From IMG/VR virus record IMGVR_UViG_3300042470_001026: 64,000 bases of DNA. The stretch is one strand, 5' to 3'. This document shows positions 5,482-58,004 of the stretch, piece by piece. The notes beneath the pieces are model-generated. The model did no database searches. It saw only the letters and a list, made by a program, of their open reading frames with translations, and was not told where the DNA came from. The stretch comes from an uncultured virus (IMG/VR IMGVR_UViG_3300042470_001026). Lineage: Duplodnaviria; Heunggongvirae; Uroviricota; Caudoviricetes. The translations under genes were made by a program, and so were the position numbers. Each line of letters opens with the position of its first letter. The first letter of the stretch is position 1.

Positions 5482-5492
5482 AAATAATTAAC

Positions 5493-6889: not shown

Positions 6890-6890
6890 C

Positions 6891-8145: not shown

Positions 8146-8149
8146 TAAA

Positions 8150-8852: not shown

Positions 8853-8853
8853 A

Positions 8854-13050: not shown

Positions 13051-13051
13051 A

Positions 13052-21711: not shown

Positions 21712-21715
21712 ATAA

Positions 21716-23336: not shown

Positions 23337-24458
23337 ATGAAAAACTTATCCAAAGAGGAACTTTTAAGCAGACTTGAAGCGATAAATAGAAGTAATGCTA
23401 TCATCTATTTTGACCTAAAAGGTAATATTTTGGGGGTAAATGATATTTTCCTAAAAGCGATGGGGTATAGAGAGGAAGAACATCAAGAGGTTATTGGTAA
23501 GCATCATAGTATGTTTGTTTGTGAGGACTATGCAAAATCAAGTGAATACGAAAAGTTTTGGGATATATTAAGAAGCGGTAAATACTATCAAGGCGAATTT
23601 GAGAGAAGAAAAAGAGATGGCAGTCTAATTAATCTTCAAGCGACCTACAACCCTATTTTTGACGAGGGTGGTACGATTACTAAAATAATGAAAATCGCTA
23701 CGGACATCACACCTATTGTAAAGTCTAAACAACAAATAGAGGCAATTAATAGAAGCACCGCCTCAATCGTTTTTAACACAGATGGCTTTGTTTTAGATGC
23801 GAATACTTTATTTTTATCTACTATGGGTTATGGCTCAAGTGAAAAGGATAAAGTGATAGGTAAACACCATAGTGTTTTTGTAAGTTATGAGCATTCAAAA
23901 AGTGATGAGTATAAAAAATTTTGGGAACAATTAAGAAGTGGTAAATCATTTGAGGGAACATTTGAAAGGAGAAAGGTAAACAACGATATAGTATATCTAA
24001 AGGCAACCTACAATCCCGTTTTTGATAGTAAAGGCAACGTGATTGAAGTAATTAAATTTGCAAGTGATGTTACGGAATCGGTAAATGATAAAAATCAAAT
24101 TGAGGCACTTTCCGAAAAACTAAAAGATGAACTTGACAAGTCTGAGCAACTAAAAAACTCAATTGAGATTGAAAAGAATGCTGCTTTGAATGACTTAGAT
24201 ACAATGATAAAAAAGAGCCAAAGTGAATTGATTAAAGTAATTGTTAAATGTGCGTTGGCGGTAATTATAGGAGTAGGTGTTGTTACAACTTGTTTATATT
24301 GGTTAGCGATGTTTACTGGCAAGGACACGCAAATAATTGGCTCTACATGGAGCAATATGTTTAGTGTGCTTCTTACAAACGCCTTTTCAATAGTTGGTAC
24401 AATAATGGGTATTAAGTACGCTACACAAGAAAATGGTAAAGAAAAAAAATTAACATAA
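23337..24458 (+). CDS. tandem PAS-PAS protein with coiled coil and two C-terminal TMs (no MCP or kinase output)
   Basis: Two copies of AINRS.A.I.F..G..L.AN..FL..MGY...IGKHHS.FV...Y..FW..L..G....G.FER......L.ATYNP.FD..G....K.A.D.T. Confidence 0.9.
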   Translation: MKNLSKEELLSRLEAINRSNAIIYFDLKGNILGVNDIFLKAMGYREEEHQEVIGKHHSMFVCEDYAKSSEYEKFWDILRSGKYYQGEFERRKRDGSLINLQATYNPIFDEGGTITKIMKIATDITPIVKSKQQIEAINRSTASIVFNTDGFVLDANTLFLSTMGYGSSEKDKVIGKHHSVFVSYEHSKSDEYKKFWEQLRSGKSFEGTFERRKVNNDIVYLKATYNPVFDSKGNVIEVIKFASDVTESVNDKNQIEALSEKLKDELDKSEQLKNSIEIEKNAALNDLDTMIKKSQSELIKVIVKCALAVIIGVGVVTTCLYWLAMFTGKDTQIIGSTWSNMFSVLLTNAFSIVGTIMGIKYATQENGKEKKLT

Positions 24459-24473
24459 CATAAAACAAACAAA

Positions 24474-24719
24474 ATGAAAAAGATAACAAAATGGATTAGC
24501 GGTTTTTTAAGCGAGAATGGGCAAGCATCAAGTAAAAGACTAGTAGGGGTCATGTGTGCTTGTTTCCTTTGCTATACCCTTTATGCAAATCACACTGTAG
24601 AGAACGAACCAAGCGAAGCATTGGTTTACACTGTTGGCTCACTTGCATTTGCTGCTTTAGGTCTTACAAGTGCTGAAAAAATATTTAAAAAAGATAAAAA
24701 TGAAACTCCAATCTCTTAA
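24474..24719 (+). CDS. holin-like 2-TM protein
   Basis: SSKR motif plus two TMs; overlaps the endolysin start. Confidence 0.6.
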   Translation: MKKITKWISGFLSENGQASSKRLVGVMCACFLCYTLYANHTVENEPSEALVYTVGSLAFAALGLTSAEKIFKKDKNETPIS

Positions 24720-25299
24720 TTCAATAATACCCGTACAAGTTCTTGCGGAAATAAATATTCTAGTAGAGAAATTTAGCCTTAATAGCGGGTTACGACTTTC
24801 TCACTTTCTAGCTCAATGTGCTCACGAAAGCGGGAATTTTAAAGTCCTAAATGAAAATCTTAATTATTCGGCTGACGGACTTTTAAAAATATTTCCTAAA
24901 TACTTTAAGGATAAGGCAACTGCTGACCTTTATGCCCGTAAACCAGAAAAAATTGCAAATCGTGTATATGCCAGCCGTATGGGTAATGGCGATGAAGCAT
25001 CAGGGGATGGGTATAAATTTCGTGGTCGTGGATATATTCAATTAACTGGCAAAGACAACTACAAAGCATTTTCAACCTTTATAGGGGAAGATTGTGTTGC
25101 TAGCCCTGACCTAGTTTCTACAAAATATCCACTTACTTCAGCTGCGTTTTTCTTTGAAAAAAACAAACTTTGGGACATTTGTGATAAGGGCAATACCAAC
25201 GATGTAGTTACAGCCGTGACCAAAAGAGTCAATGGAGGAACACACGGACTTGAGGATAGATTAAGCAAATTCAATACCTTTAACTCAATTCTAACTTAA
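24700..25299 (+). CDS. GH19 chitinase-like endolysin
   Basis: HFLAQCAHES, ENLNYS, GDGYKFRGRGYIQLTGKDNY, VTKRVNGG; ATG at 24700. Confidence 0.92.
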   Translation: MKLQSLNSIIPVQVLAEINILVEKFSLNSGLRLSHFLAQCAHESGNFKVLNENLNYSADGLLKIFPKYFKDKATADLYARKPEKIANRVYASRMGNGDEASGDGYKFRGRGYIQLTGKDNYKAFSTFIGEDCVASPDLVSTKYPLTSAAFFFEKNKLWDICDKGNTNDVVTAVTKRVNGGTHGLEDRLSKFNTFNSILT

Positions 25300-27462: not shown

Positions 27463-28107
27463 ATGTTAGACTCAATTACTTGGGGTAATCCATCCCAAAA
27501 GCATTTGCCGTACCTAGAGCCAGACAAATCACCTCTGGAAAAACTCATCCCTCAATTAATTAAGTTCACTTTCCCCAAAAACTCTTCAAAAGCGTGCAGA
27601 GAGGAGTTAAACGAGCTAGTTGATTGTGTTGATGCACTCAAAAAAGATGAGCAAGCTCTGAAGCGTTATATGGCTTACGATAAGAGTCTAACACAAGTTA
27701 TGGCTCAAGTAATCATTGAGCAGAATTTGGGTGAAAAAGGGGCTGAAATCATTGATAAGATAATTGACGAGACCCTTCCTCTAATTATGAAGCTCAAATT
27801 TTACTTCCAAAGACCAAGACCCTATCAAATGGCAGAGTATTATAAGCTAAAACTCTTCCCTTTTTATTCTAGGTCAGCAGCTTCTCCTTCCTATCCCTCT
27901 GGACATGCCCTTCAAGCAAGGGTAATTTGCCATGTTTTAGGAAACCACTTCCCTGATAAGTTTGAATATTTTGAAAGTTTAGCCACCGACGTACAGCACA
28001 GCCGAATATATTTAGGTGTTCATTATCCTTCGGATATTGACTACTCTCTGTTTGTAGCTGATACAATCATTCGGGATAAAGAATTTAAGGCTAAATATTC
28101 TCTTTAA
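27463..28107 (+). CDS. PAP2/haloperoxidase-superfamily acid phosphatase
   Basis: KFYFQRPRP, PSYPSGH, SRIYLGVHYPSD. Confidence 0.9.
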   Translation: MLDSITWGNPSQKHLPYLEPDKSPLEKLIPQLIKFTFPKNSSKACREELNELVDCVDALKKDEQALKRYMAYDKSLTQVMAQVIIEQNLGEKGAEIIDKIIDETLPLIMKLKFYFQRPRPYQMAEYYKLKLFPFYSRSAASPSYPSGHALQARVICHVLGNHFPDKFEYFESLATDVQHSRIYLGVHYPSDIDYSLFVADTIIRDKEFKAKYSL

Positions 28108-28508
28108 TGCAGATTCACCTAAAAAATGGAAAAGCCACTTGGAAACAAGACTGGGCTGAAATAGGTGGTAAACGTAATTTTTACCGTAGTCGCTGGGAAT
28201 ATCGCTTTGCCCTATATCTTGAGTTCATGAAAAAGCATGAACATATTCAAGATTGGGAGCATGAGCCTGAAACATTTTGGTTTGAAGGTATAAAGAGAGG
28301 AACAAACAATTATAAACCCGATTTTAAAGTAACATTTCCCTCTAATGCCGTACAGTTCTTTGAAGTAAAAGGGTACATGGATGCCAAAAGCAAAACAAAA
28401 ATAAAGCGGATGGCAAAATATCACCCGAACATAGTATTAAGAATAATTGACAAAACTTGGTTTAAAGACAACGCTGCAACACTTAAAAAAATACTACCAA
28501 ACTGGTAA
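28107..28508 (+). CDS. PD-(D/E)XK endonuclease (DUF1064-like)
   Basis: RSRWE, WEHEP, YKPDF, FEVKG. Confidence 0.8.
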   Translation: MQIHLKNGKATWKQDWAEIGGKRNFYRSRWEYRFALYLEFMKKHEHIQDWEHEPETFWFEGIKRGTNNYKPDFKVTFPSNAVQFFEVKGYMDAKSKTKIKRMAKYHPNIVLRIIDKTWFKDNAATLKKILPNW

Positions 28509-28525
28509 ATTTCAACAGATTTCAA

Positions 28526-28533
28526 TATATTTG
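28526..28533 (+). promoter_or_regulatory. TAnnTTTG promoter element
   Basis: TATATTTG 18 nt upstream of ATG 28552. Confidence 0.4.
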
Positions 28534-28551
28534 GTATGTAAAACATTAGTA

Positions 28552-29001
28552 ATGCAGAACGAATCGTCCGCAATTATTCAAATACTAGAAGAATTAAATA
28601 AGAGCATAGAGGTCAGAGGTTTAAAAGCAACTTCTATGCTTTTAAGACTATATGACCCAAAAGATTTGGGAGACAATTTGAAGGACTATGAAAAATTTAT
28701 ATTAACTGAAGTAGCAAAAGCTTTCAATATTGAGTTTGAAGATTTATTTTTTGGCAGATACAAAAGAGCAAATTATAAATATGCACTTGGACTTTGTGTT
28801 TATTACCTATACAACGTTACAACGCTTGGAGATATTCAAAAGCATATTTTTAAGTATAAGAACAAATCCTTATTAAGTAAATACCGAAGAGAAATAGAAA
28901 ATTTTAAACCAATAGACGAAGAGGATAAAAAATTTATAAAGATTAAAAAAGAACTAGATAAAAAGATTAAAAATTATAACATAGAAGCTAACCATGAGTA
29001 A
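28552..29001 (+). CDS. helical protein, possibly DnaA-C-like DNA binding
   Basis: ATG at 28552 preferred; ILTEVAKAFNIEFEDLF...CVYYL pattern. Confidence 0.55.
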   Translation: MQNESSAIIQILEELNKSIEVRGLKATSMLLRLYDPKDLGDNLKDYEKFILTEVAKAFNIEFEDLFFGRYKRANYKYALGLCVYYLYNVTTLGDIQKHIFKYKNKSLLSKYRREIENFKPIDEEDKKFIKIKKELDKKIKNYNIEANHE

Positions 29002-30127
29002 CACAGAAAATAATCAACAAGAGCAACCGCAACCTCAAGTGGTTCAGGTAAAAAGCTACAATCCCTTTATAGATGTAGTAAATGAAAAGCCGTATACAAC
29101 TATGTCTGTTTCGGCTAATGCCTCCCAAGTAACTAGTCCTATTCCAGAGCCTTCCTATCAGCCAAATGCTGTTAGAGCAAATGAAAACCCTTATAGTATG
29201 CTCAATGAGGGAATGGGTGGCGGAATGGGTGGTAATTCTAGTGCCCCTCCCCCAATCAATCCAGCCCTAAATAATGTTCCAGATTCAGAATTAAAAATGG
29301 GAGCTGAAAACGTGGCTAAATTGATGGTTGATGGCTACGAACAGCTTCATGTTTTTGGAAATAAATGGCTTCAAATTTCTCAAAAAAAATTGAGAAAAAT
29401 GGTGGCCGAAGGCGATATAGACCTATCCGTAGAAATTCCATACGAATATGGTAAAACAATTACTGCTGGTGAGTTTATTCAAGAGTTTAATGAGCAGAAT
29501 AAGGACACCCTGACCGTTTCTAAAGAATTTAAAAAAGAGGTTACACCAGTTCTTACTAGGGTATTACAGAAGAGAGGTGCTGCTATGACCGATGAGCAGT
29601 ATTTAGGATTTTTAATTTTAAAAGATGTAGGTCTAAAAGCAATTATTGTAACACAAGTAAAGTCCTCCATGAACGAAATGCTGAATGTAATTAAAGACTA
29701 CACTCAAGCAATTAGAGAAAGTGGAAACTCTACCCCACCTCCACCGACACAGCCTAGTAGTCCAAAACCAAGCAGACCAACCCCAAGCTCAGAGCCTAAA
29801 TTTGAAGAGCCTGACCATGCTTCTGAAAGGTTCAATTTTGAGGATAATGAAACAGTTATGGCTGCAACTGTTCAAGCTCATAAGGTGCCTGATTCTGGAC
29901 GTGCAAAAGCAATAGCAGCTAGAAAAAAGGATGAGCAAATGAAGGCTGCTTTTGATAAGACACAAGGAGGTAATTCATACGAACAAGCTATGAAGACCAA
30001 AAAGACTGGCAAACGTGGAAGAAAGCCAAAAGATTATCTACAAATGGATGAAGAGCAAATTGCAGAGGCTATTGTTTTAAGAGAAACAAAGGAGGTAGAT
30101 AAGGATAAAATTCAAGGGTTAGATTAA
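28994..30127 (+). CDS. hypothetical protein upstream of the packaging ATPase
   Basis: 377 aa; low-complexity ends, helical core with a weakly hydrophobic segment. Confidence 0.75.
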   Translation: MSNTENNQQEQPQPQVVQVKSYNPFIDVVNEKPYTTMSVSANASQVTSPIPEPSYQPNAVRANENPYSMLNEGMGGGMGGNSSAPPPINPALNNVPDSELKMGAENVAKLMVDGYEQLHVFGNKWLQISQKKLRKMVAEGDIDLSVEIPYEYGKTITAGEFIQEFNEQNKDTLTVSKEFKKEVTPVLTRVLQKRGAAMTDEQYLGFLILKDVGLKAIIVTQVKSSMNEMLNVIKDYTQAIRESGNSTPPPPTQPSSPKPSRPTPSSEPKFEEPDHASERFNFEDNETVMAATVQAHKVPDSGRAKAIAARKKDEQMKAAFDKTQGGNSYEQAMKTKKTGKRGRKPKDYLQMDEEQIAEAIVLRETKEVDKDKIQGLD

Positions 30128-30137
30128 ATAGAATTTT

Positions 30138-30548
30138 ATGATAAAAGAATTAGAAGAGGTATATGAATTTCTAAAAGTTAATTACCGATACGGTAATGAA
30201 ATGTGTGAAATTTCAGAGCCTAATCAATGGGAAGATAAGCCCTACGTTGCGTGTGATGAAAAAATAATTAATTACGAAGACGGATATTATCACATATCTG
30301 ACTTATACAATATCCATCAAACGCTACGGTTTAAAACTAAAACGGAGGTATTAGAATTTTTTAATGGGCACAGTGAGGGGTATCAGTTTTATTTTAAAAA
30401 CCCAGACGATATTGCTTTTTCTATTGGTAAATTAACAACTATTATTAATTTAATGGGTAATAAAGAAACGCAAGAAGCTTTTAAAAATGCGATTTCTCCG
30501 CTACAAAAAAATTACAATTTAGAAAATGCCGATGCGGATAAAGAGTAA
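30138..30548 (+). CDS. hypothetical protein
   Basis: 136-aa ORF in operon. Confidence 0.65.
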   Translation: MIKELEEVYEFLKVNYRYGNEMCEISEPNQWEDKPYVACDEKIINYEDGYYHISDLYNIHQTLRFKTKTEVLEFFNGHSEGYQFYFKNPDDIAFSIGKLTTIINLMGNKETQEAFKNAISPLQKNYNLENADADKE

Positions 30549-30858
30549 AGAATGGCTTGCCTTCAAAGAGCAATTTTTAAGCATGCTTTCTGTTCTGGGA
30601 GATGAGACAGAGAATTTTGATTTTCCAGAAGACCCAGAAAACTTTGAAATATTTGTTCGTGATTGTGAGGTGCATCCCACATTTATGAAAAAACAAGATA
30701 CTTTTAAGGTGGATTATGATTTTACATTATGTGAAACAAAAATCAGAACTTTATCTTTTTCAATATTCCGTGATTCGGCAAGAATTGAAATGACTCTAAA
30801 GTCTGGAGAATTAAAAATTGACGAAGAAAAAGTAACATGGCAAGAGAACCCTTATTGA
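30526..30858 (+). CDS. hypothetical protein
   Basis: 110-aa ORF in operon. Confidence 0.65.
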   Translation: MPMRIKSKEWLAFKEQFLSMLSVLGDETENFDFPEDPENFEIFVRDCEVHPTFMKKQDTFKVDYDFTLCETKIRTLSFSIFRDSARIEMTLKSGELKIDEEKVTWQENPY

Positions 30859-31655
30859 TGGCAGCTTGCGGTAAGAAAGGAGTAGGTAAGAGCTATCAAC
30901 ACATGATTTTAATGAATGGATATGTGATGGGAGACCCGTATAAGGGTGTGCGTGGTAGAAAATCGTTAATTATGGACGTTAACGATGAATATGGGGTTTA
31001 TGGAGTGCCAGCCTTATCTCTCAATGACGTTCCTCTTTATACGGTGCATCCTCAAGTAGAAATTCGTAGAATTAGACCCTTTCATCCAGACGGACGTAGA
31101 ATGACACTAGATGAATGGGCAAATGCTCTTTTTTACGTTTTAAATAGGTTCCAGAACGGTCTTTTATTAATTGAGGACATTAACAAGTTTATTGGAGACC
31201 ATCTTCCGCATGATTTGGTAGGAGCAATTGCAACAAACCGTCACGCGGGATTAGACATTATTCTTTCGTATCAATCACTTGGTCGTATTAATACCAAAAT
31301 TTGGGGTAATATGAACTTGATGAGATTTCATAAAAACGTAGAGAGCGTAGAGAGACACAAGAATAAATTTCCCGATAAATACGAAATGATGCGTATTGCA
31401 GAGATTATCGTTAACAACGAATATCATAAGGGGAATAATCGTTTCTTCTTATATGTGGACATGGATGAAGAAAAAATAAGAGGAGAATTGATTCAAGACC
31501 AAATACTTTCGGGAATTGAGCAATATGTTAACGAAAAGCATAATGACCTTTTAAAATCTTATTTAGTTCAAAGAGAAAACGGCAAGAAGAAACATAATGC
31601 AGAAACAGCTAAAGCAGAGGTTATGAGCCGTTTACAAGCACAATATTTTCAATAG
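30837..31655 (+). CDS. FtsK-HerA superfamily genome-packaging ATPase (A32/P9/B204-like)
   Basis: N-terminal Walker A GKKGVGKS, LIMDVNDEY, Walker B LLLIED, arginine finger NRH followed by hydrophobic strand and Gln (IILSYQ); 272 aa with no nuclease domain. Confidence 0.8.
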   Translation: MAREPLLMAACGKKGVGKSYQHMILMNGYVMGDPYKGVRGRKSLIMDVNDEYGVYGVPALSLNDVPLYTVHPQVEIRRIRPFHPDGRRMTLDEWANALFYVLNRFQNGLLLIEDINKFIGDHLPHDLVGAIATNRHAGLDIILSYQSLGRINTKIWGNMNLMRFHKNVESVERHKNKFPDKYEMMRIAEIIVNNEYHKGNNRFFLYVDMDEEKIRGELIQDQILSGIEQYVNEKHNDLLKSYLVQRENGKKKHNAETAKAEVMSRLQAQYFQ

Positions 31656-31680
31656 ATTTTCCTGACCTACCCTCAAAACC

Positions 31681-31710
31681 GCCCCCTTCTCTCTAGTTGG
31701 GGGCTTTTTT
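31681..31710 (+). terminator. intrinsic terminator
   Basis: GCCCCC...GGGGGC followed by TTTTTT. Confidence 0.75.
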
Positions 31711-31871
31711 ATTGTATTTTATACACAAATTCAACATATACAAAGGTGTAAAAGAAAGTCAAAAAAAAATACTTGAAAAAGTATGCACTGTATTGAAAAC
31801 GAATACTAAATTTACAACGCCTTGATTCTGTAATCGGGCAAAACAAAATTTTTAACCCAAATTCGTTCAAA

Positions 31872-31979
31872 ATGAACTTTAAGAAAATTGTTGGAGACGT
31901 TTTAGTAGTTACCGCTGGTGTAGCTCTTTACATGCTGGCTGTGAAGCCAATGCTTGATAAAGCTAAAATCGGTAGCTAA
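31872..31979 (+). CDS. 35-aa membrane peptide preceding the capsid candidate
   Basis: MNFKKIVGDVLVVTAGVALYMLAVKPMLDKAKIGS*. Confidence 0.75.
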   Translation: MNFKKIVGDVLVVTAGVALYMLAVKPMLDKAKIGS

Positions 31980-32038
31980 TTAGAAGACATTGAATTGGTT
32001 TTGTAATCAAATTCATCTAAAATTTAAAATTCAGTAAA

Positions 32039-32743
32039 ATGAGTTCAATCCAACGCTATCTTCAAATGGCGAATCGTTCTGTGAACGAACAGTTTGTCGG
32101 TGTAGACGGCTTTATTGATGATGATATGTATTTTGCTGGTGACATGAATACATTTTTTGGTGCTGATGGAGAAGCTAATGCTGCTCCCGTTGCTGCACCA
32201 TCTGTTATGCGTTCCCAGCCTTACATTATCACCGTTTCTAATGCTTCTAACGCTGCCGTTACAATTGATATTTTCGGTGCATACATTTATTTAAACAACG
32301 CTGGCTTTAATGCTGGTACTTTAACTGTAAGCAACGTAACTATCACTTCTAACCTTTCTAACGTTACCTACTTCAACCTCTTGAACCAGTCTAGCATCAG
32401 CCCTTTCACAATCGGAAGCACGCTGATTAGCTCTGTAAATGGTACTACAAGCCAAGTGCTTCAGCCAATTACATTGACTACTCAAGATGCAAACGGTAAC
32501 CAAGCGGTGAAAATCTTAACACCAGTAGTTGACCCTTATCAGAATCAGTCTGGTATCGTTGACCTGAAGCAACCATTTAGAGTTGACGGCTTCACAAGGC
32601 TGACATTCCAAATCTTCGCTTCTTCCAGCGTTCAGTTCCAGTTCTATCCTTCTGATACAATCAACGTTGCACGTGGATTGGGTGGTAACCCAGTTAGCAA
32701 GCAATTTGGTAGTCCAAGGATTATCAGACCAGCTGCACGCTAA
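32039..32743 (+). CDS. candidate major capsid protein (putative single jelly-roll with N-terminal leader)
   Basis: Beta-strand-rich core of about 175 aa, acidic leader, C-ending codons (TTC/AAC/ATC) suggestive of high expression, own terminator-bounded unit just after the packaging ATPase. Confidence 0.6.
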   Translation: MSSIQRYLQMANRSVNEQFVGVDGFIDDDMYFAGDMNTFFGADGEANAAPVAAPSVMRSQPYIITVSNASNAAVTIDIFGAYIYLNNAGFNAGTLTVSNVTITSNLSNVTYFNLLNQSSISPFTIGSTLISSVNGTTSQVLQPITLTTQDANGNQAVKILTPVVDPYQNQSGIVDLKQPFRVDGFTRLTFQIFASSSVQFQFYPSDTINVARGLGGNPVSKQFGSPRIIRPAAR

Positions 32744-32760
32744 TTTTAGCGGAAAATAAA

Positions 32761-32802
32761 AAAGGGGCTGAAGCGGGAATTTCTCTTGCTTCGCCCTTTT
32801 TT
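32761..32802 (+). terminator. intrinsic terminator after the capsid candidate
   Basis: AAAGGGGC-T-GAAGC...GCTTC-GCCC followed by TTTTTT. Confidence 0.75.
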
Positions 32803-32815
32803 ACATTTAAATAGT

Positions 32816-32823
32816 TAAATTTG
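32816..32823 (+). promoter_or_regulatory. TAnnTTTG element (possibly a leaderless transcript)
   Basis: TAAATTTG 4 nt before ATG 32828. Confidence 0.35.
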
Positions 32824-32827
32824 TTGT

Positions 32828-33235
32828 ATGTCAAATTCAAGAGTAAACTTATATAGCTATACTGCTGCTTCAAATCCTTACTTTGTTAAATCACTTGCCC
32901 ATAAATATGGGTATGAGTTTGATAAGGAACAAGGGTTAGCATCTGTATTACAACAACTTGTAAGCTATGAAGGTGAGCCAGTTTTGATGGAGATTATTGA
33001 AAATAATCCCGATAAAGACCTCTTTATGGAATACTACGAAAAGAAGTTTTCCAAAAAAGAAGAGGAAAAGAAATTAGCACAGCCAACTGAACTTGCTTCT
33101 TATATGAACTTTACTGGTCAGCTTGCTGCTGTGCAACAACTTCAGGAAAATAAAAAAATTACTACAGAGACTAGCTTGATGGTTCTTGCTGGTGCTGTTT
33201 TGATTGCGTTTGCAATCGTAACTACAAAAAAATAA
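32828..33235 (+). CDS. C-anchored membrane protein (putative virion)
   Basis: C-terminal TM followed by KK; YMNFTG motif. Confidence 0.75.
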   Translation: MSNSRVNLYSYTAASNPYFVKSLAHKYGYEFDKEQGLASVLQQLVSYEGEPVLMEIIENNPDKDLFMEYYEKKFSKKEEEKKLAQPTELASYMNFTGQLAAVQQLQENKKITTETSLMVLAGAVLIAFAIVTTKK

Positions 33236-33238
33236 ACT

Positions 33239-33973
33239 ATGGCTTTAGATGCTTTAGAGATAACAAGAAGCTTATTAGCGTATCAAGTTGTAAATGATAA
33301 GGGTTCTTTAGTTCGTCTTTTAAAAAGAAATGGAGTAGACGTGCCCGAAAACGCTAGTGATACAGAATTAACTTCTGCTGCATTATTTGCTTCAGGGAAA
33401 AGTGCAAATTTCAAAAAAGAATTAGCTGCACTTTTATCAGGGAATGCAAAAACTGCTGGAGATAATTTCTCTTCTTTTGTTGGTCAAGAAATGGGATTTA
33501 CTGGGCTTGACGATTTTTCCTTCACTGGCATGGAAGGGTTTGAAAATCAAACTGGAAATCTTCCAAGAACAACATCAGGGGTAAGAACTTCTGCTATTCC
33601 AGCTATAAAGCCAGTTGCAGTACCCACCGCAGCCCTAACTCCCAAGACGGGAGCTGCTGCACCAAAAGGTAAAACTGGTGCTGGTAAAGTTCTTTCTTCA
33701 ATTAGAAAATTTTTAAAAGAAAATGTACTTACAAAAGAAAACGTTGATAGTGCCGTTCAAATAGGACTTACAAAAATTAATACTCAAACCCAGAACAAGG
33801 CTAATAGAATAGCTCAAGAGGGTATTGTTATCCAGCAATATCAAGATGACATCAGAAATCAGCAAGGTTCAAAAGGGAAAGCTGGTTTAAGTACTGGTGC
33901 TTGGATTGGTATAGGATTGGGTGTAGCTGCGATTGTAGGTATCGCAATTTATTTTTCAACTAGAAAAAAATAA
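33239..33973 (+). CDS. C-anchored membrane protein with FxG repeats (putative virion)
   Basis: SSFVG..GFTG..SFTG; C-terminal TM followed by RKK. Confidence 0.75.
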   Translation: MALDALEITRSLLAYQVVNDKGSLVRLLKRNGVDVPENASDTELTSAALFASGKSANFKKELAALLSGNAKTAGDNFSSFVGQEMGFTGLDDFSFTGMEGFENQTGNLPRTTSGVRTSAIPAIKPVAVPTAALTPKTGAAAPKGKTGAGKVLSSIRKFLKENVLTKENVDSAVQIGLTKINTQTQNKANRIAQEGIVIQQYQDDIRNQQGSKGKAGLSTGAWIGIGLGVAAIVGIAIYFSTRKK

Positions 33974-33976
33974 AAA

Positions 33977-34435
33977 ATGAAATCAAGAGATATTTTACTC
34001 ATTGCAGCGATAGGTCTAGCAGCTTATTATTTACTTATGGGTAAGAAAAAGCCCTTAAAGAAAGAAGACATGCCAGCTGGTAAAGGTGGCTCTGCTGCTC
34101 CCGTATTTAAAGGGGGTTTTGTTCCTTCATACCAACCCAGACCATTTACTCCAGTTACAGTTGACGATTTAAGCAAGAAAGTAAAGCCAGCTTTTGTAAA
34201 GACTGATTATGTAATGCCTGACATTGTGAGGCCCGCTTATAAAGAGCCTATTCAAATGCCAGCTCTTAATCTTGTTCCAGATATTTATGATAGAGGTGTG
34301 AATCAGCCTCTACCAAACAAAGATGCATATTACGCAAGTTTTGCTGGTCAATGTAGCGAGGACATGCAGACTGCTTGTGCATGTGCTTCTGCAAGAAAAG
34401 AAAAATTTAGTATAGACATTCCAAAACTACCATAA
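33977..34435 (+). CDS. N-anchored membrane protein
   Basis: N-terminal TM followed by KKK; YYASFAG then a Cys cluster. Confidence 0.7.
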   Translation: MKSRDILLIAAIGLAAYYLLMGKKKPLKKEDMPAGKGGSAAPVFKGGFVPSYQPRPFTPVTVDDLSKKVKPAFVKTDYVMPDIVRPAYKEPIQMPALNLVPDIYDRGVNQPLPNKDAYYASFAGQCSEDMQTACACASARKEKFSIDIPKLP

Positions 34436-34662
34436 TGTCAGAGGCAAAAGAAATACTAGACAAATTAAAAAGTTTAAAGTCAACCTCTACTTCTATGGAA
34501 ATGAAAAGAAGAAAAGGTTTGATTAACGGAGGTTTGATTGGACTTGCTGGTGGAGTACTTATTGGACTTACCAGAAACTACAATCTTGTTTCTTCAGCTG
34601 TAGTAGGTGCACTTATTGGAGGTTTAGTTACCTCTGTAATCCTTCCAAAATCCGATGACTAA
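34435..34662 (+). CDS. glycine-zipper 2-TM membrane protein
   Basis: GGLIGLAGGVLIG and AVVGALIGGLV. Confidence 0.75.
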   Translation: MSEAKEILDKLKSLKSTSTSMEMKRRKGLINGGLIGLAGGVLIGLTRNYNLVSSAVVGALIGGLVTSVILPKSDD

Positions 34663-35108
34663 TGGCAAAGAATACCACAAAAATAATTGCTGGAGCACTT
34701 GCAGTCGTAGGTGCTTATTTTGTTTTTAAATATTTTCAAAAACCAAAAACAAAGACAGCCGAACCTCAAAAGGGCAAGACTGACGTAACTACCACGCCTA
34801 CCCCCACACCCAAACCAAGTGCTGGATATCCTCTTAAAAATGGTAGCTCTGGTAGACTAGTTTCTTCTGTACAACAGTGGATTTTAAAAATTGACCCAAC
34901 TCTTCTTCCAAAATTTGGAGCAGATGGTAAGTTTGGACGTGAAACTGAAGATGCTTTACAAAAACTAATTGGTAAAAAAACAATTGATTCTAATTCAGAT
35001 ATTGATAAACTTATTCTGAAATATAATCAGAAAAGATTCCCCATGGTGGCAGCCCCAAGTGGTGATGTAACGACTCCACCAGTATTTAAACCTTTCGGAA
35101 CATTTTAA
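34662..35108 (+). CDS. N-anchored peptidoglycan-binding (PG_binding_1-like) protein
   Basis: TM, Pro/Thr linker, PLKNGSSG..V..VQ.....ADGKFGRETEDAL. Confidence 0.8.
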   Translation: MAKNTTKIIAGALAVVGAYFVFKYFQKPKTKTAEPQKGKTDVTTTPTPTPKPSAGYPLKNGSSGRLVSSVQQWILKIDPTLLPKFGADGKFGRETEDALQKLIGKKTIDSNSDIDKLILKYNQKRFPMVAAPSGDVTTPPVFKPFGTF

Positions 35109-35126
35109 ACAAAAAACAACCATAAA

Positions 35127-35417
35127 ATGCAAAATTCGGTTAAAGAAAAAGATTTAACTGCAAACCAATTGTATAAAGAGTATAAAGATGAAGGAGGAAC
35201 TTTAAAATTTTCAGACTGGCTGACACGGGAAAAAACTAAAGGAATTTTTCCGTTGAACAGCAACTTGAATGAAGAAGTTCAAAAAACTCTTAAAACAGTA
35301 AAAGAAGAAGAAATGAAAAAAACTTATTTAGGATTCCCAGTATCTACTTTGCTTATTGCGGGTGGAGTAATTATATTGGCTGTAGTTGCAGCAAAAATGT
35401 TTAATAAGAAAAAGTAA
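35127..35417 (+). CDS. C-anchored membrane protein
   Basis: C-terminal TM followed by KKK. Confidence 0.75.
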   Translation: MQNSVKEKDLTANQLYKEYKDEGGTLKFSDWLTREKTKGIFPLNSNLNEEVQKTLKTVKEEEMKKTYLGFPVSTLLIAGGVIILAVVAAKMFNKKK

Positions 35418-35422
35418 TTATC

Positions 35423-35707
35423 ATGAAGTATGGTCAATTCTTTGTTGGTCTTTTAGTAGGTGCCGTAGCTATGCACGTTTTACACAAAATGGGCTATATG
35501 TCAAATAAGCCTAAAAACACTCAAGACGTAGTTGGCGAAGTAAAAGATGAGGAAGAAAAAAACTATTCCAACCCGATTAGAAAAAAATATGATATCGTAT
35601 TGAAGCCGAATAAATACACTAAAGAGGTTGTACAAAAGGCAAAAACCCTTACCAAAGGACGTTATGAGGTTGATTTAAATAAAATAAAAGACCCCGTATT
35701 AATTTAA
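35423..35707 (+). CDS. N-anchored membrane protein
   Basis: N-terminal TM, charged tail. Confidence 0.7.
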   Translation: MKYGQFFVGLLVGAVAMHVLHKMGYMSNKPKNTQDVVGEVKDEEEKNYSNPIRKKYDIVLKPNKYTKEVVQKAKTLTKGRYEVDLNKIKDPVLI

Positions 35708-35708
35708 T

Positions 35709-36512
35709 ATGATTTTCAGCCTTTGGACAAGATATGAGCCTATTATGATTAAGGTGGTGGTGCAGACAACATCCCCACAAGAAATTGTATTGAAGGTATA
35801 TGACCCAAGTCAGGCAAATACTTATTTTACAGATAGGCAAAAAACTGTAAACGGAGTTGAAGAGCTATTTATCAGGATGCCACTCTCCCCTAACGTTGTA
35901 AAATTAGAGGTGTACAATAAAAAAAGTGGGAACCTACCTAAAGGCCAAGACCCTACTTTCACTGTTTTGAACATAAAAAAAGAGGATTTAGATATCACGC
36001 TTCCCAAAACTAAAATGGACACATTCGCTGTCCGTAATTTTGTGGCTTTTGCTCAAAAGTTTGCTTATAATGCTGGTTGGCTTTCAGCACCTAAAGACTA
36101 TTTAAGCTCTGTAGGAGCATTTAAAATTGAATATCTCCCTCAAATTATCAATTTCAAGGGTGAGAAAATGTCTACCCCAGCACGAATCAGCACAAAAAAT
36201 GGTCGTATTCAGGTTTCGCAACAAGCTTTTCGTGAGTATACTATTCCAATGCGTATGGCAATCTTATTACATGAGTTTAGCCATTTCTACCTGAATTCAG
36301 ATATTTCTGATGAAACGGAAGCAGATTTAAATGGACTTACTATTTATTTAGGTTTAGGGTATCCTATTCGTGAGGCTTATCAAGCTTTTACTAGCACTTT
36401 CGTTGGCCATCCAACTGACCAGAATAAGCAACGGTATGATATTATTGATAAATTTATAAGAGATTATATTAAAGAGTATAAACTAAAAGATGTTTACTCA
36501 AATGAAAAATAA
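35709..36512 (+). CDS. zincin-type metallopeptidase
   Basis: AILLHEFSH (HExxH) plus downstream ETEAD third-ligand motif; beta-rich N-terminal domain. Confidence 0.75.
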   Translation: MIFSLWTRYEPIMIKVVVQTTSPQEIVLKVYDPSQANTYFTDRQKTVNGVEELFIRMPLSPNVVKLEVYNKKSGNLPKGQDPTFTVLNIKKEDLDITLPKTKMDTFAVRNFVAFAQKFAYNAGWLSAPKDYLSSVGAFKIEYLPQIINFKGEKMSTPARISTKNGRIQVSQQAFREYTIPMRMAILLHEFSHFYLNSDISDETEADLNGLTIYLGLGYPIREAYQAFTSTFVGHPTDQNKQRYDIIDKFIRDYIKEYKLKDVYSNEK

Positions 36513-36514
36513 CT

Positions 36515-36781
36515 ATGAATAGCACATTAAAAGGAGTATTTACCATTTTAGTAGTTGGAGGTGTTGTATATGCTTCCTATCGCCTTCTTTTTAAGGATAA
36601 GAAAAAGATATATGCTGACCTAATTATAAAAAATGGTAAGTATACATCAAGTATTGATAACCTTTTGAGCTTTGATGAAGACTATCTGAAAGAGTGGTAT
36701 TTGTCAGCAAAAAAAGGAGAAGAAACATTTACATTAAAAGGAGTAACATATCTTACACAAGGTGGTAAATTAAAAAAATAA
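36515..36781 (+). CDS. N-anchored membrane protein
   Basis: N-terminal TM followed by a basic patch. Confidence 0.7.
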   Translation: MNSTLKGVFTILVVGGVVYASYRLLFKDKKKIYADLIIKNGKYTSSIDNLLSFDEDYLKEWYLSAKKGEETFTLKGVTYLTQGGKLKK

Positions 36782-36784
36782 AAA

Positions 36785-37333
36785 ATGGAAAACGCAGTTT
36801 ACCAATATTACAAAGAGCTTCCACCTTGGGCAAAAGGTGCAATCGTTGTTGGCGGTGCAGCAGTAATTTATTTAACTGCAACGAGAATCTTTAGAAATAT
36901 CAAGAATGCTAAAAACCAAAAGGATGCTAAAAAAACACAATCTGAAGTAAAATCAGAGCTTACCCAACTTATAAACCAAGGTGTGAAAAAATCATATCCT
37001 GATAGTCAATATAATGCTTGGGCTGACAGAATTCAAAAACAATTTGATGGAATTGATTGGAAGCAAAATTGGTTTGATAAAGATGTGCCTATCATCGGTC
37101 AATGGAGTGGAAGTGGAAAATCGGTAGCTGAAATATTTAAGCAATTAAAAAATAATGCTGACTTTTTAGCTCTTGTTAGTGCCTATGGAATTCGTACCTA
37201 CGACCAAGCGGGTATATTTACGGGAGATTTTACTGGTAATTTGTATCAAGCAATTCAAGATGAGCTTGACAAAGGAGAAGTAGATGCCTTAAATGCAGTT
37301 TTGAACAAAAAAGGAATAACCTATAAAATATAA
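36785..37333 (+). CDS. N-anchored helical membrane protein
   Basis: LPPWAKGAIVVGGAAVIYL TM; helical C-terminal domain. Confidence 0.75.
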   Translation: MENAVYQYYKELPPWAKGAIVVGGAAVIYLTATRIFRNIKNAKNQKDAKKTQSEVKSELTQLINQGVKKSYPDSQYNAWADRIQKQFDGIDWKQNWFDKDVPIIGQWSGSGKSVAEIFKQLKNNADFLALVSAYGIRTYDQAGIFTGDFTGNLYQAIQDELDKGEVDALNAVLNKKGITYKI

Positions 37334-37336
37334 ATT

Positions 37337-37873
37337 ATGCCAGCACCAGTAGCAGTATTTTTAGCACCAACAATTGGAGGAGCAGCTTTATTAAGCAAAA
37401 AAAAGCAAGCCAGAAGGGCTCAAGCAGCTTCTAATAAGTGGTCTACACAATTTCCTCTAGTAGACGATTATGCTTCTCAGCAAGCTATGATTAGCCAAGC
37501 TCAACTTCAGCTTAAAACTCTTCAAGCACAAGGAAGCAAATCAAAGCAAGTAAGAGCTGAAATTGCTCAACTTTCCAAGTGGATTGGTGTGATGAAAGCA
37601 CAATTAAAAGATTTAAAAACGGGTCTTGACATGGCTAGCACTAATATGCAAAAAGCCCCTACTCCAACTGTAATTGCTTCAGCCCCACTTCCAGTTGCCC
37701 AAATGGCTCCCGCTACACAAAATGCTCCTACTGGAGTTACATCTGGCGATGTAGCGGAAAACGTCGCTAACGGAGATAATTTAGCTTCTGCAACCAAAAA
37801 ACCTACAAACTGGTTATTAATTGGTGGTTTGGTTGTTGGAGCTGTAGTTTTATATAGAATACTTAAAAAGTAA
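37337..37873 (+). CDS. C-anchored membrane protein
   Basis: Helical hairpin, Ala/Pro/Thr linker, NWLLIGGLVVGAVVLYRILKK. Confidence 0.75.
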   Translation: MPAPVAVFLAPTIGGAALLSKKKQARRAQAASNKWSTQFPLVDDYASQQAMISQAQLQLKTLQAQGSKSKQVRAEIAQLSKWIGVMKAQLKDLKTGLDMASTNMQKAPTPTVIASAPLPVAQMAPATQNAPTGVTSGDVAENVANGDNLASATKKPTNWLLIGGLVVGAVVLYRILKK

Positions 37874-37876
37874 GTT

Positions 37877-38461
37877 ATGGCAATAGACATGATTGAAAAT
37901 AATGATTTAGGTGCTCTTGCTCCAAGTAGATTGGGGTTAAGAGAATTTGCTGATGACAATTGGGCGTATAAAAATTATGCTGGTGGAGAAGATTTTTTCA
38001 ATCTTTTCGGTAGCCGTAAAGAAAAAAAAGATAAATATACCAGCTGGGCAAGGGCAAAATTTGAAAATCTTTCAACTGATTGTGAAAATATTCAAAAAAG
38101 TATTGATATAATTAATAATGAGCTTCAACTTCTTTTAAAGAAGAAGCAGACTTTGAATATTAAAACACAAATAAACGAGACAAATCAAATATTAGCCGAA
38201 TACAAAAGGTCGCAACTTGAACAAGATTGTGAGAAAAAACAAATTTTAGCTAAATCAGAAAAAGAAAGGGAGCAAACTTTAGCAACCTTAACTCAATTAA
38301 GTGACGTTTCAGTTGGAAAAGCACAACAAGAACTTGCTGGCCTTCAAGCGGGTCTTTCCCCTGAAGAGGCAGCCAGACAAGCAAAAATGAAAAATTATTT
38401 ATTGTACGGTGGTATTGGACTGGGTGCTATCCTATTAATTGCCCTAATTGCTAGAAGATGA
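37877..38461 (+). CDS. C-anchored coiled-coil membrane protein
   Basis: YKNYAGGEDFFNLFG leader, Cys-paired coil, C-terminal TM followed by RR. Confidence 0.75.
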   Translation: MAIDMIENNDLGALAPSRLGLREFADDNWAYKNYAGGEDFFNLFGSRKEKKDKYTSWARAKFENLSTDCENIQKSIDIINNELQLLLKKKQTLNIKTQINETNQILAEYKRSQLEQDCEKKQILAKSEKEREQTLATLTQLSDVSVGKAQQELAGLQAGLSPEEAARQAKMKNYLLYGGIGLGAILLIALIARR

Positions 38462-39946: not shown

Positions 39947-42900
39947 ATGAGTACAACATTTCTAGGAGGAGACGGATTCGGTTTTATAGGCGGTGGAGCT
40001 GGTGGTGGTGGCGGTACTGGTTCATCTGGAACCAGTGGTACAAGCTTTGGTAGCTCGGGAACTAGCGGTGGCTCGGGAACTAGCGGAAATAGTGGAAGCT
40101 CTGGAACAAGTGCTTTTTCAGGTACTTCTGGTACTTCAGGAACACATGGTTCTTCAGGTTCTTCTGGAACTTCAGGATTAACTGGTACATCTGGAACAAG
40201 CGGTGATTCAGGCTCTAGTGGAACTAGCGGTGAAGCTGGGAGTTCTGGAACATCTGGTCAATCAGGAACTTCTGGAGAAAGTGGTACTTCAGGCGATAAT
40301 GGTTCAAGCGGTACTTCAGGCGATAGTGGAACATCTGGAACTGACGGTTCTTCAGGCTCCAGTGGAACAACTGGAACCTCTGGCTCAAGCGGAGAAGATG
40401 GAACATCTGGGACATCAGGCTCTTCTGGTTTTGACGGAACAAGCGGTATAGACGGAACTTCTGGTGAATCAGGTACATCAGGTACCGATGGCTCTTCTGG
40501 AACTTCTGGAGTAAGCGGTAGTTCTGGCTCTAGCGGTACATCAGCTACAGACGGCTCTTCAGGAACAAGTGGATTTGAGGGAACCTCTGGTACAAGCGGT
40601 GAAAACGGAACTTCAGGCATTGACGGTACTTCTGGTCAAGACGGCTCTTCTGGAACAAGCGGAACAGCTGGTTCTAGCGGAGAATCTGGCACATCAGGTA
40701 CAGATGGTTCTTCTGGAACATCTGGTGAATCTGGTACTACTGGTACTAGCGGTGTTGACGGAACTAGTGGCGAAAGCGGAACATCAGGTGAAAGCGGAAC
40801 ATCAGGAACTAGTGGCGAATCTGGTACTTCTGGGACTGATGGCTCTTCTGGTACTTCTGGAGAATCTGGAACATCAGGAGAAAGCGGAACAAGTGGAACA
40901 AGTGCTGCGGATGGAACCGCTGGAACTAGTGGTGAAAGCGGAACAAGTGGAGAAAATGGCACCTCTGGTATAGACGGTACTTCTGGTATAGATGGTACAA
41001 GCGGAACGGCTGCATCTTCTGGTACATCAGGAACTTCTGGTACCTCTGGCGTAGATGGTACTTCAGGTACTGACGGTTCAAGCGGAACAAGTGCTGCCGA
41101 TGGAACTTCGGGAACCGATGGCTCTTCTGGAACATCTGGTACTGACGGCTCTTCAGGCACATCAGGAACATCTGGTTCAAGTGGTACAGACGGAAGCTCT
41201 GGAACAACTGGAACAAATGGTTCTTCTGGAACATCTGGCGAAAGTGGAACAAGCGGTACAAGTGCTGCGGATGGCACTTCAGGTACTGACGGAAGCTCTG
41301 GTACTTCAGGGGAAGCTGGAACAAGTGGGACTTCGGGCACCGATGGCTCATCTGGAACCGACGGCTCTTCAGGTACATCTGGCACTTCAGGTTCTTCAGG
41401 AACCGCTGGTACTGCTGGTCAAACGGGTACTTCAGGCACTGACGGTTCTTCGGGAACATCAGGGGAAAGCGGAACTTCTGGTACCGACGGTTCATCAGGA
41501 ACTAGCGGCGAAAGTGGTACTTCGGGCACCGATGGCTCTTCTGGTACTTCAGCCTCTTCGGGCAGCTCTGGCACATCGGGCACAGATGGTTCTTCGGGTA
41601 CTTCGGGAACCGATGGTTCTTCAGGTACGGATGGGTCTAGTGGTACATCAGGTACTGATGGTTCTTCAGGTACTTCAGGTACAGATGGCTCTTCAGGTAC
41701 TGATGGTTCGTCTGGTACATCTGGAGAGAATGGGTCTAGCGGAACCTCTGGAACCTCTGGTACAGCAGGAAGCTCTGGAACATCTGCAACCAATGGTTCT
41801 TCGGGCTCTTCTGGAACCTCTGGTGAAAATGGAACTTCTGGAACAGACGGCTCCAGTGGCACATCTGGCACCTCGGCAAGCTCTGGCTCTTCTGGTACTT
41901 CGGGTACCGATGGTTCTTCGGGTACAGACGGCTCAAATGGTACTTCTGGAACATCGGGTAGCTCAGGAACTGATGGTTCTTCTGGCACTTCTGGTACAGA
42001 TGGCTCAAGCGGCACAAGCGGCTCATCAGGGACATCTGCCACTTCTGGAACGGATGGTTCTTCAGGAACTTCAGGAACAAGTGGAGAAAATGGAACTTCT
42101 GGCACATCTGGCACCTCTGGTACTTCTGGTACTTCAGGAACTAGCGGAACAGACGGAACTACATGTGAAAGCTATACAATAATAGCTCCATCTGGCACGA
42201 CTACCACTACCACGACATCTACAACTACGACTACTCCGCCACCAGCTTGTCTGTGTTATTCTCTTACAAACGATGGTGACCCAACTAACACAAATACAAC
42301 AAATTATACTGATTGCGATGGTAATCCTCAGACGATAACAAATAAAATTTTTAACTCTGCTGCAACCTACTTTTGTGCTCAATCTGGTTCGGTTAGTGCA
42401 TCGTCTGGCTTAACAGTAACGGTCGTTACTGATTCGCCCAGCACTTGTAATGGATGTGGAGGTACGACAACTACTACTACTACTTCTACAACTACAGCTG
42501 CTTTATTGTCTGGCTCATATGCATATTCATATACAGATTGCTCTGGTAATGCTGTCTCAGGTAATTTAAGTGATGGTCAATCGCTTACTTTCTGCGCAGT
42601 TAGAGGCTCTGTAACTTGGGCTTATACTCTTGTTGATAATGGCGTATGCGCTGGTACTAGTGGAACAAGCGGTACTTCTGGTACTTCTGGAACGTCTGGC
42701 ACATCAGGTTCTTCTGGAACCAGCGGGTCTTCTGGTACATCAGGTACTTCTGGCTCTAGCGGTTCAAGTGGAACGTCAGCAGAAAGCGGTACTTCAGGAA
42801 CTAGTGCAACATCGGGCTCTTCTGGTACTTCAGCAACAGATGGAAGTTCTGGAACTAGTGGTACGGACGGCTCATCTGGAACAGATGGCTCTAGCGGTAC

Positions 42901-44761: not shown

Positions 44762-44788
44762 AGTGTGCTTTAATTTCAGAAAATATAA

Positions 44789-47521: not shown

Positions 47522-47538
47522 TTATTAAACCAAATTAT

Positions 47539-47895: not shown

Positions 47896-47898
47896 TAC

Positions 47899-50715: not shown

Positions 50716-50717
50716 AA

Positions 50718-54257: not shown

Positions 54258-54258
54258 A

Positions 54259-56968: not shown

Positions 56969-56972
56969 TTAT

Positions 56973-58001: not shown

Positions 58002-58004
58002 ATT

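Follow-up and report, generated by a model that had tools for sequence, protein, structure and literature searches.

A single jelly-roll protein encoded beside a B204-like ATPase: a likely major capsid protein of freshwater dsDNA viruses of about 74–102 kb

Introduction

What encloses the genome of a virus in which no gene for an HK97-type capsid protein, a portal or a terminase can be detected? The question is raised by positions 31872–32802 of IMG/VR record IMGVR_UViG_3300042470_001026, an uncultured virus of which we analysed a stretch of 64,000 nt ("the window", always meaning this whole stretch), a dense one-strand gene array of ~35 % GC. The locus is larger than one gene: it comprises a 35-aa open reading frame (ORF), a 234-aa ORF at 32039–32743 (+), whose jelly-roll product we name JR1, and a terminator hairpin, the last U of which is position 32802. 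The initial annotation, made from the letters alone, saw in JR1 a one-gene, single jelly-roll major capsid protein (MCP) matured by cleavage of an acidic leader. We retain the fold and the capsid role but not the one-gene shell, and conclude, with a probability of roughly 0.6, that JR1 is the principal shell (major capsid) protein of a freshwater double-stranded DNA (dsDNA) virus of ~74–102 kb built like the tailless phages with an internal membrane. Below, JR2 is a second, distant paralog, G001, G002, G005, G006 and G007 are related virus records, and L-numbers are related loci.

Results

The JR1 core is predicted to be a single jelly roll

The features of the locus that carry the argument are as follows.

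32213..32743 (+): JR1 jelly-roll core (aa 59–234, including the stop codon), from the AlphaFold2 model, fold matches and conserved columns
32039..32212 (+): JR1 N-terminal arm (aa 1–58), with a predicted helix 3–17, a low-confidence acidic/aromatic stretch and an Ala/Pro linker
31872..31979 (+): 35-aa single-pass hydrophobic mini-protein, read from the sequence, with its ATG at 31872
31681..31711 (+): terminator-like hairpin and U-run 3' of the ATPase gene (−15.1 kcal/mol, z −3.56)
32759..32802 (+): strong terminator hairpin flanked by A- and U-runs (dG −25.4 kcal/mol, z −5.35)
31828..32803 (+): span under RNA-library contigs, the probable transcription unit (small ORF plus JR1), by contig placement

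The ATG at 32039 is the first start past the in-frame stop, and the same methionine begins the homologues. JR1 contains no cysteine and carries eight N-x-S/T sequons. AlphaFold2 (AF2) models were made for two proteins, the neighbouring ATPase and JR1, the latter on an alignment of 80 diverse homologues. The JR1 model reached a mean predicted local distance difference test (pLDDT) score of 81.1 and a predicted template modelling (pTM) score of 0.69, with 121 residues at or above 90 and ten-residue blocks over residues 61–220 scoring 86–95. In this model the 176-aa core consists of eight long strands with short extras and loop helices. When compared with the PDB by Foldseek, it ranked highest against single jelly-roll coat proteins, namely the small subunit of cowpea mosaic virus (CPMV; E 3.8e-4, probability 0.99), beet black scorch virus and satellite tobacco mosaic virus (STMV), with probabilities of 0.99–1.00 to these three; the list also mixes in nucleoplasmin-like pentamers, Ena fibre subunits, phage fibre domains and tumour necrosis factor (TNF). 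Matches to BFVD structures were weak only, e.g. to a CRESS capsid and C1q-like domains. Each chain has one 176-aa core and one profile match, which is not the make-up of a double jelly roll. AF2 and Foldseek therefore bear out the initial assignment of the core as a single jelly roll below double jelly-roll size, and the high-confidence core has the eight long strands on which that assignment had been staked. By the model, the JR1 core is a single jelly-roll-type sandwich, without specific kinship to any solved protein.

Sequence searches placed JR1 in none of the classified families: there was no hit in Pfam, PHROGs or NCBIfam and none by tblastn against 50,697 phage records, PDB sequences gave chance-level best matches only, both with the single protein and with a profile, and the ESM Atlas gave only leads below 0.9. 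A 5.8-billion set yielded 534 relatives at E≤1e-3, the best 120 at 81–97 % identity. Clustered at 50 %, the family counts 552 representatives (268 at E≤1e-10), mostly of 220–260 aa, and it is carried by 16 IMG/VR contigs of 34–84 kb. Its core begins at a near-invariant (T/K)SQPYI and contains a conserved DPYQxQ loop. JR1 and the ATPase are also found together on three contigs from metagenome-assembled genomes (MAGs; L027, L028 and L029), the labels of which, Gammaproteobacteria, Chlamydiae and Ignavibacteria, come from three unrelated phyla and so suggest mis-binning; these are probably viral contigs.

JR1 adjoins a B204-like ATPase and is the best conserved gene of its neighbourhood

The gene upstream of the JR1 unit is a second pillar of the argument.

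30837..31655 (+): genome-packaging ATPase candidate of 272 aa, FtsK/HerA superfamily, B204-like, with Walker A GKKGVGKS and Walker B-like LLLIED

The ATPase's own sequence has no Pfam hit, and 21 of 37 members of its family match PF01935 (HerA central domain). Foldseek ranks 1–13 of its AF2 model (pLDDT 89.8) are all B204 of Sulfolobus turreted icosahedral virus (STIV) or STIV2 (E 1e-8 to 1e-7), the next match being the SIR2/HerA complex (8e-6). It has the make-up of the A32/P9/B204-type enzymes, that is, a small single-domain P-loop NTPase of FtsK/HerA fold with Walker A and B, encoded beside JR1.

The gene order runs from the ATPase through the 35-aa membrane ORF and JR1 to a block of small ORFs and then giant collagen-repeat proteins. 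Of 17 related loci, 15 have a counterpart of the 35-aa ORF in the interval from the ATPase gene to the JR gene, the distant L014 and L015 among them. A crude hydropathy scan of the block 3' of JR1 picked out at least 11 small ORFs with hydrophobic segments; beyond the block come a conserved HExxH protein of 267 aa and then four collagen-repeat proteins. Across 19 loci, no gene in the 10 kb to either side is as well conserved as JR1, which has 78–84 % identity in 15 close loci (ATPase 69–75 %, HExxH protein 67–76 %) and 48–54 % in four distant ones, where it is again the best conserved gene (ATPase 43–49 %).

No competing capsid system was detected. Pfam and PHROGs searches of the window ORFs and of the beyond-window parts of the 84-kb G001 returned no HK97 capsid, portal, terminase, tail tube or sheath, and PF05065, PF03354 and PF04860 matched none of four related records (G001, G002, G005, G006) while matching the named control genomes. 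The 99 ORFs of at least 80 aa in G005 gave no capsid, portal or tail-tube PHROG, and fibre-type hits were confined to C-terminal domains of long fibre proteins. Thus the tailed-phage set of HK97 MCP, portal and large terminase subunit (TerL) was not found in these searches, and its absence from four related records makes a major-capsid role for JR1 likely. PHROG hits to "terminase large subunit" in G005 were rejected, as PDB and Pfam show the protein to be a MoxR-like AAA ATPase interrupted by an intein that contains a homing endonuclease. The same intein ORF (51986–54241; L045:4387–6642, minus strand) gives misleading "primase" and "helicase loader" PHROG hits, and the window orthologue of the MoxR-like ATPase (14188–15648) is without the intein.

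G005 ends in perfect 653-bp inverted terminal repeats (ITRs; L025:1–653 and the last 653 bases of L026), which identify it as a complete linear genome of 74,101 bp. CheckV puts its completeness at 57 % despite these perfect ITRs. Protein-primed PolB (PF03175) was found in none of four relatives.

Could JR1 instead be an abundant virion protein that forms no lattice (a vertex or penton-type, cement or decoration, or lectin-like surface protein), the true MCP being an unrecognised protein encoded elsewhere? TNF/C1q-like and carbohydrate-binding modules reach similar fold scores, JR1 paralogs have multiplied in G006, and many ORFs are without any assignment, all of which would suit such a role. 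Among the genes kept in the distant loci, however, we saw none that would make a better capsid protein: just two unknowns of at least 250 aa there are free of membrane segments, a 377-aa protein of low complexity and the HExxH protein, and G005 contains no match to two unknowns of G001 (903 aa and 329 aa). A conservation that exceeds that of the packaging ATPase also argues for JR1 itself, as does its own terminator-bracketed unit with RNA contigs in four studies, an arrangement that suits a protein made in thousands of copies. We consider a non-lattice JR1 unlikely.

JR1 occupies a terminator-bracketed unit covered by RNA-library contigs

The hairpins at 31681–31711 and 32759–32802 make the 35-aa ORF and JR1 a terminator-bracketed unit. 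In 14 freshwater or riverine RNA libraries from 11 studies, 5–19 % of the sampled words of 28000–37900 were present. Contigs were placed for four of the 14, each from a different study (X1, X5 and X7 among them), and covered the JR1 unit in all four. The X1 contigs 31828–32566 and 32537–32803 are identical to the window, and the 3' end at 32803 coincides with the end of the terminator U-run; contigs of X7 and X5 start at 31833 and 31840, respectively, with no loose ends listed at these ends. The strain itself is clearly present in X1, where all 8 listed pieces show 0–1 differences to the window, and there the word depth was 69 and 51 for the two JR1-unit contigs vs. 2.4–5 for six downstream-gene pieces. 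Few or no contigs fell on 28000–31640 and several downstream bins, contigs being unable to show absence. Since the depth of a contig says little about expression level and some of the material in an RNA library may be DNA, we take these data as a weak hint that the JR1 unit is a discrete, abundant transcript.

Sigma-70-type promoter matches in the window were not in excess (43 vs. 39.8 in shuffles), and the Bacteroidota-type motif TAnnTTTG showed no intergenic enrichment (2 intergenic hits), so that promoters allow no host call. Searches of the window for tRNAs and Rfam families found none.

Related genomes encode a second jelly-roll protein

That only one such gene is visible, as the initial annotation had it, holds for the window, where a six-frame family-profile search gave one hit at E≤1, but not for related genomes: the profile found at least two members in each of four (G001, G005, G006 and G007). 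The matches are at 34545–35234 and 69737–70090 in G001, the second being JR2 (L023:7543–8214), at 37084–37839 and 15286–15633 (JR2) in G005, and at 1726–2442 and 19998–20366 (JR2) in G007; the 102-kb G006 has six, three of them clustered among homing endonuclease genes. JR2 proteins measure 156–223 aa, are without the acidic arm and keep the DPYQxQ loop, and hhalign relates them to strands D–I of JR1 with a probability of 96.8 % (E 2.8e-10). JR2 lies in a small-gene module that is syntenic across G001, G005 and G007, ~35 kb from JR1 in G001 and ~22 kb in G005. Since this module in G001 begins directly after the homologue of the last gene of the window, the JR2 of the window's own genome is expected a few kb past base 64000. 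With JR2 syntenic in three relatives and a further family member in all four, a one-gene capsid is unlikely.

Tandem JR–JR doubles are rare in the family. One, of 397 aa (P0139), is encoded in G006 between homing-endonuclease genes (L030:10001–11194; G006:17384–18406), and a second form, P0253, has 456 aa and no IMG/VR locus; a word-based search for fused forms of more than 410 aa gave none, which is weak evidence. Locus scans with the distant members P0206 and P0199 found no relatives, and P0242 gave four weak loci that the family profile does not recognise. In another member, P0217 (336 aa), a lysine-rich N-terminal extension of ~150 aa takes the place of the acidic arm and resembles nucleic-acid-binding coat-protein arms.

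The N-terminal arm shares a motif with adjoining membrane-anchored proteins

Three features downstream of JR1 bear on its arm.

32828..33235 (+): p135, a 135-aa protein with a C-terminal membrane anchor and YMNFTG ~15 aa ahead of the anchor, present in all 19 loci
33239..34435 (+): two membrane-anchored proteins (244 aa and 152 aa) with the same type of motif (FSSFVG, GFTG, FSFTG; YASFAG)
35709..36512 (+): conserved 267-aa HExxH protein, a candidate zinc metallopeptidase with an invariant HEFSH block

The acidic leader with three F-x-G motifs and an Ala/Pro linker, as first described, is indeed there, in 58 aa. Residues 1–58 contain 8 D+E vs. 3 K+R (net −5) and 7 aromatic residues, the three motifs are FVG 19–21, FAG 32–34 and FFG 39–41 (shuffles of the arm average 0.55), and the linker ANAAPVAAPS closes the arm. 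In the AF2 model, residues 3–17 form a helix of middling confidence and residues 17–46 have a pLDDT below 50. Across the family the arm is 40–76 aa long, is net negative in 68 of 80 members and follows a common plan, in which a conserved helix, ~(K/R)YFxxAxxxANExF, leads to an ADG(F) element, a variable acidic/aromatic stretch and an aromatic-(x)-N-A-x-G element, with 8–15 linker residues then remaining up to SQPYI in the family alignment.

The alignment of homologues only partly matches the picture of a variable leader on a conserved core. Residues 31–58 do vary, but residues 1–30 are as conserved as the core: among 120 close homologues, pairwise column identity is 0.85–0.92 for residues 1–30, 0.53–0.66 for residues 31–50 and 0.915 for the core, and in the diverse homologue set it is 0.27 for the helix, 0.10 for the linker and 0.31 for the core.

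The N-[A/F]-x-G-type motif of the JR1 arm reads NTFFGADG. A regular expression, [FYWM]-x-[NSTD]-[FA]-x-G, which was picked after the sequences had been viewed, matches once each in four consecutive genes (JR1 MNTFFG, p135 YMNFTG, p244 FSSFVG and p152 YASFAG) and 6 times in all remaining window proteins together. Orthologues of p135 keep a matching motif in 12 of 14 cases (YMNF[ST]G in 10, plus YMNFVG and FLNASG), the other two having LNADG and ILNATG. We prefer to read the motif as a docking peptide, by which coat arms and membrane proteins would bind at one common site, because arm residues 1–30 are under core-like constraint. Alternatively, the HExxH protein may cut all these proteins at the motif, in which case JR1 would lose its leader, a possibility to which we give appreciable but clearly lesser weight. 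The data fit both readings alike and do not distinguish them.

As the sole candidate maturation protease, the HExxH protein deserves mention in its own right. It is kept in the module in 18 of 19 loci, at 66–76 % identity in close and 49–51 % in distant ones, and H188, E189, S191 and H192 of HEFSH, together with the block EADLNGL..IYLGLGYP, are invariant in 11 sequences. Searches of Pfam, NCBIfam and the PDB gave no hit to any classified peptidase, and its Atlas lead, a DUF4344 metallopeptidase (0.87), lies under the Atlas reliability mark.

These results also bear on the complete scheme of the initial annotation, in which JR1 alone would build the whole shell, hexavalent and pentavalent positions included, and would mature by proteolytic removal of an acidic leader of ~55 aa. 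The single family member within the 64-kb window speaks for the first part, and the true paralogy and synteny of JR2 in G001, G005 and G007 speak against it. Leader removal would be in keeping with the predicted disorder of the arm, with an Ala/Pro linker and a conserved N-A-x-G-type motif 10–15 aa before the SQPYI core start, and with an HExxH protein of invariant motif in the same module; yet a retained, working arm predicts the core-like conservation of residues 1–30 at least equally well, and the HExxH protein matches no protease family at threshold. Taken as a whole, the scheme appears decidedly unlikely.

Other genes of the window and its relatives

Four collagen triple-helix repeat proteins (1604, 910, 938 and 892 aa) lie in a row at 39947–53396, where GC is 41–52 % vs. 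~35 % elsewhere; they are probably virion fibres. Two blocks of glycan genes, 53382–63783 and 4488–10742, encode GT1, GT2 and GT9 glycosyltransferases, a carbamoyltransferase, a sulfotransferase and an APS-kinase-like protein, as well as methyltransferases, a polysaccharide deacetylase, a PhyH dioxygenase and a SET-domain protein. Judged by these gene assignments, the virus might glycosylate its coat or fibres with enzymes that it encodes. Two genes at 27463–28508, immediately ahead of the assembly module, code for a Holliday-junction resolvase-like nuclease and a protein of the PAP2 lipid-phosphatase family; both are kept in distant loci. The product of 23337–24458 combines two PAS domains with a pair of C-terminal hydrophobic segments and has a counterpart in 1 of 19 loci.

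Three peptidoglycan hydrolase candidates, two of the glucosaminidase family and one GH19/endolysin-like, are encoded at 21163–22213 and 24670–25299 and argue for a bacterial host. Polyvalent-protein domains (DUF5824, DUF5661, ART-PolyVal and LPD29) occupy 11008–14185, followed by the MoxR-type AAA ATPase and a DUF7192 protein; DUF932 is found at 205–1200 and DUF2958 at 19961–21163. Plasmids and conjugative elements often carry polyvalent-protein domains, DUF932 and DUF2958. The presence of these domains, and that of JR1 on three MAG contigs, could be taken to mean that the element is not a virus, or that JR1 builds a polymer other than a capsid, for example as an Ena-like fibre or pilus subunit with an N-terminal connector, but this is highly improbable, as the ATPase is nearest to a viral packaging NTPase, one relative is linear with 653-bp perfect ITRs, three peptidoglycan hydrolases are encoded, the MAGs fall in three unrelated phyla and are thus suggestive of mis-binning, Pfam/PHROG scans of window proteins showed no conjugation genes, and JR1 has no cysteine, whereas Ena connectors use disulfides (title of 7a02).

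Discussion

Cumulatively, the context fits a capsid role for JR1: it adjoins a packaging-type ATPase, precedes a run of membrane proteins, tops the conservation of its neighbourhood, has its own unit and stands in genomes where HK97, portal and TerL were not detected. What is not supported of the original proposal is the one-gene capsid. Several observations pull the other way and set the level of our confidence. The RNA evidence consists of assembled contigs only, from libraries that may carry DNA. A family present in many copies, six in one 102-kb relative and including a tandem double, also fits a general-purpose beta-sandwich module. The best VIA hit of JR1 is a small PRD1-type vertex protein, which we take to be P31, and not an MCP, and single jelly-roll MCPs of the P23-77 type are absent from the JR1 fold lists. 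An HK97 or double jelly-roll protein that has diverged far enough could escape Pfam and PHROG searches. Finally, both the host and the lipid membrane are inferred.

In layout the system is most like Sphaerolipoviridae, Simuloviridae and P23-77, which are tailless, have an internal membrane (as is proposed here) and small single jelly-roll proteins, and in which the gene of the packaging ATPase adjoins the capsid gene. P23-77-type viruses have two single jelly-roll capsid proteins per genome; G001, G005 and G007 likewise encode two jelly-roll proteins, JR1 and JR2, of which JR2 may be a capsid protein. In the P23-77/sphaerolipovirus type the two MCP genes are adjacent and follow directly after the ATPase gene, whereas here the ATPase–JR1 adjacency is kept but JR2 lies ~22 kb (G005) to ~35 kb (G001) off. 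Genomes are also larger, 74–102 kb vs. 16–30 kb, and the setting is bacterial and freshwater, unlike that of the P23-77/sphaerolipovirus group. We know of no description, for that group, of an acidic arm with a motif shared by membrane proteins. No sequence similarity to JR1 was found for this group among phage records or in the PDB, and VP16/VP17-type chains are not among the fold matches listed. Passages of three reports describe sphaerolipoviruses as having linear dsDNA with ITRs (PMC12643093, PMC12642351, PMC6356626), in which they and G005 are alike. These passages and the SSIP-1 record together give two MCP types and genomes of 16–44 kb for P23-77, sphaerolipoviruses, simuloviruses and SSIP-1, the last of which is portrayed as a tailless, membrane-containing phage (PMC6356626). 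The SSIP-1 record, from a Salisaeta host, has 43,788 bp, and profiles of JR1, JR2, the ATPase and the HExxH protein found nothing in its six frames (best E 0.49). SSIP-1 is circular with 57 % GC, as opposed to linear (G005) with ~35 % GC (window) and genomes ~1.7–2.3x larger here. Membership of the P23-77/sphaerolipovirus/SSIP-1 group is thus not shown; the likeness seen is one of layout, and neither sequence kinship nor specific structural kinship was found.

Other known systems resemble parts of this one. STIV and STIV2 (Turriviridae) and the viruses with A32/P9 ATPases have a double jelly-roll MCP, whereas JR1 has a single roll of 176 aa. The small vertex jelly rolls of PRD1-type phages (PR772 6q5u_O, PRD1 1w8x_N) are among the closest known systems to JR1. 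The coat proteins of CPMV (S), grapevine fanleaf virus, STMV and satellite panicum mosaic virus are single jelly rolls that form T=1–3 shells round small genomes. Small RNA and satellite viruses have coat proteins with basic, RNA-binding arms, in contrast to the acidic arm of JR1. In the HK97 delta domain, T4 gp23 and the substrates of the adenovirus protease, an N-terminal assembly domain is cut by a virion protease, with a short consensus site common to several virion proteins. Those systems have other folds and other proteases; for JR1 the candidate enzyme is the unclassified HExxH protein, and cleavage is a conjecture.

If JR1 is the principal shell protein, assembly might proceed as follows. 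The 176-aa core would form the lattice as a single jelly roll, with the 58-aa acidic/aromatic arm facing inward. The arm helix and the N-[A/F]-x-G motif, which the arm has in common with the adjoining membrane-anchored proteins, would register the shell on membrane proteins during assembly, and the B204/HerA-type ATPase would package DNA into the preformed jelly-roll shell, which would line a protein-rich membrane. The arm may then be trimmed, with the HExxH protein as the candidate protease, although we lean towards a retained arm. JR2 would most likely provide the vertices or a second capsomer position. Assuming 2–3 nm3 per bp, a 5-nm membrane and a 7-nm shell, genomes of 74–102 kb would require a lumen of 66–84 nm and an outer diameter of ~90–108 nm.

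A further-reaching proposal, which we put forward only tentatively, is that JR1 defines a hitherto undescribed lineage, of family rank or much higher, of tailless dsDNA phages with very large membrane-lined shells, a small jelly roll with a divergent paralog and a shared motif as assembly code, in which the rare JR–JR fusions would exemplify the step from single to double jelly roll. A full-text literature search, to which supplements and subscription journals were outside coverage, found no paper describing this virus group.

The tailless phages known to be lined with a membrane are small (SSIP-1, the largest in culture that we checked, has 43.8 kb), and single jelly-roll dsDNA capsids have so far come from a few extremophile viruses of 16–30 kb. 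If JR1 is a coat protein, a common freshwater group packs 74–102 kb behind 176-aa jelly rolls, which would widen the size range of this architecture, and the 552 representative clusters, without a Pfam or PHROG family, would constitute a new sequence-orphan capsid family. The JR1 family may then serve as a metagenome marker for viruses that tailed-phage markers miss. Its single, paralogous and tandem-fused forms offer material on the origin of double jelly-roll capsid proteins, and the motif shared by the arm and the membrane proteins, together with the conserved HExxH protein, provides a testable hypothesis of assembly or maturation.

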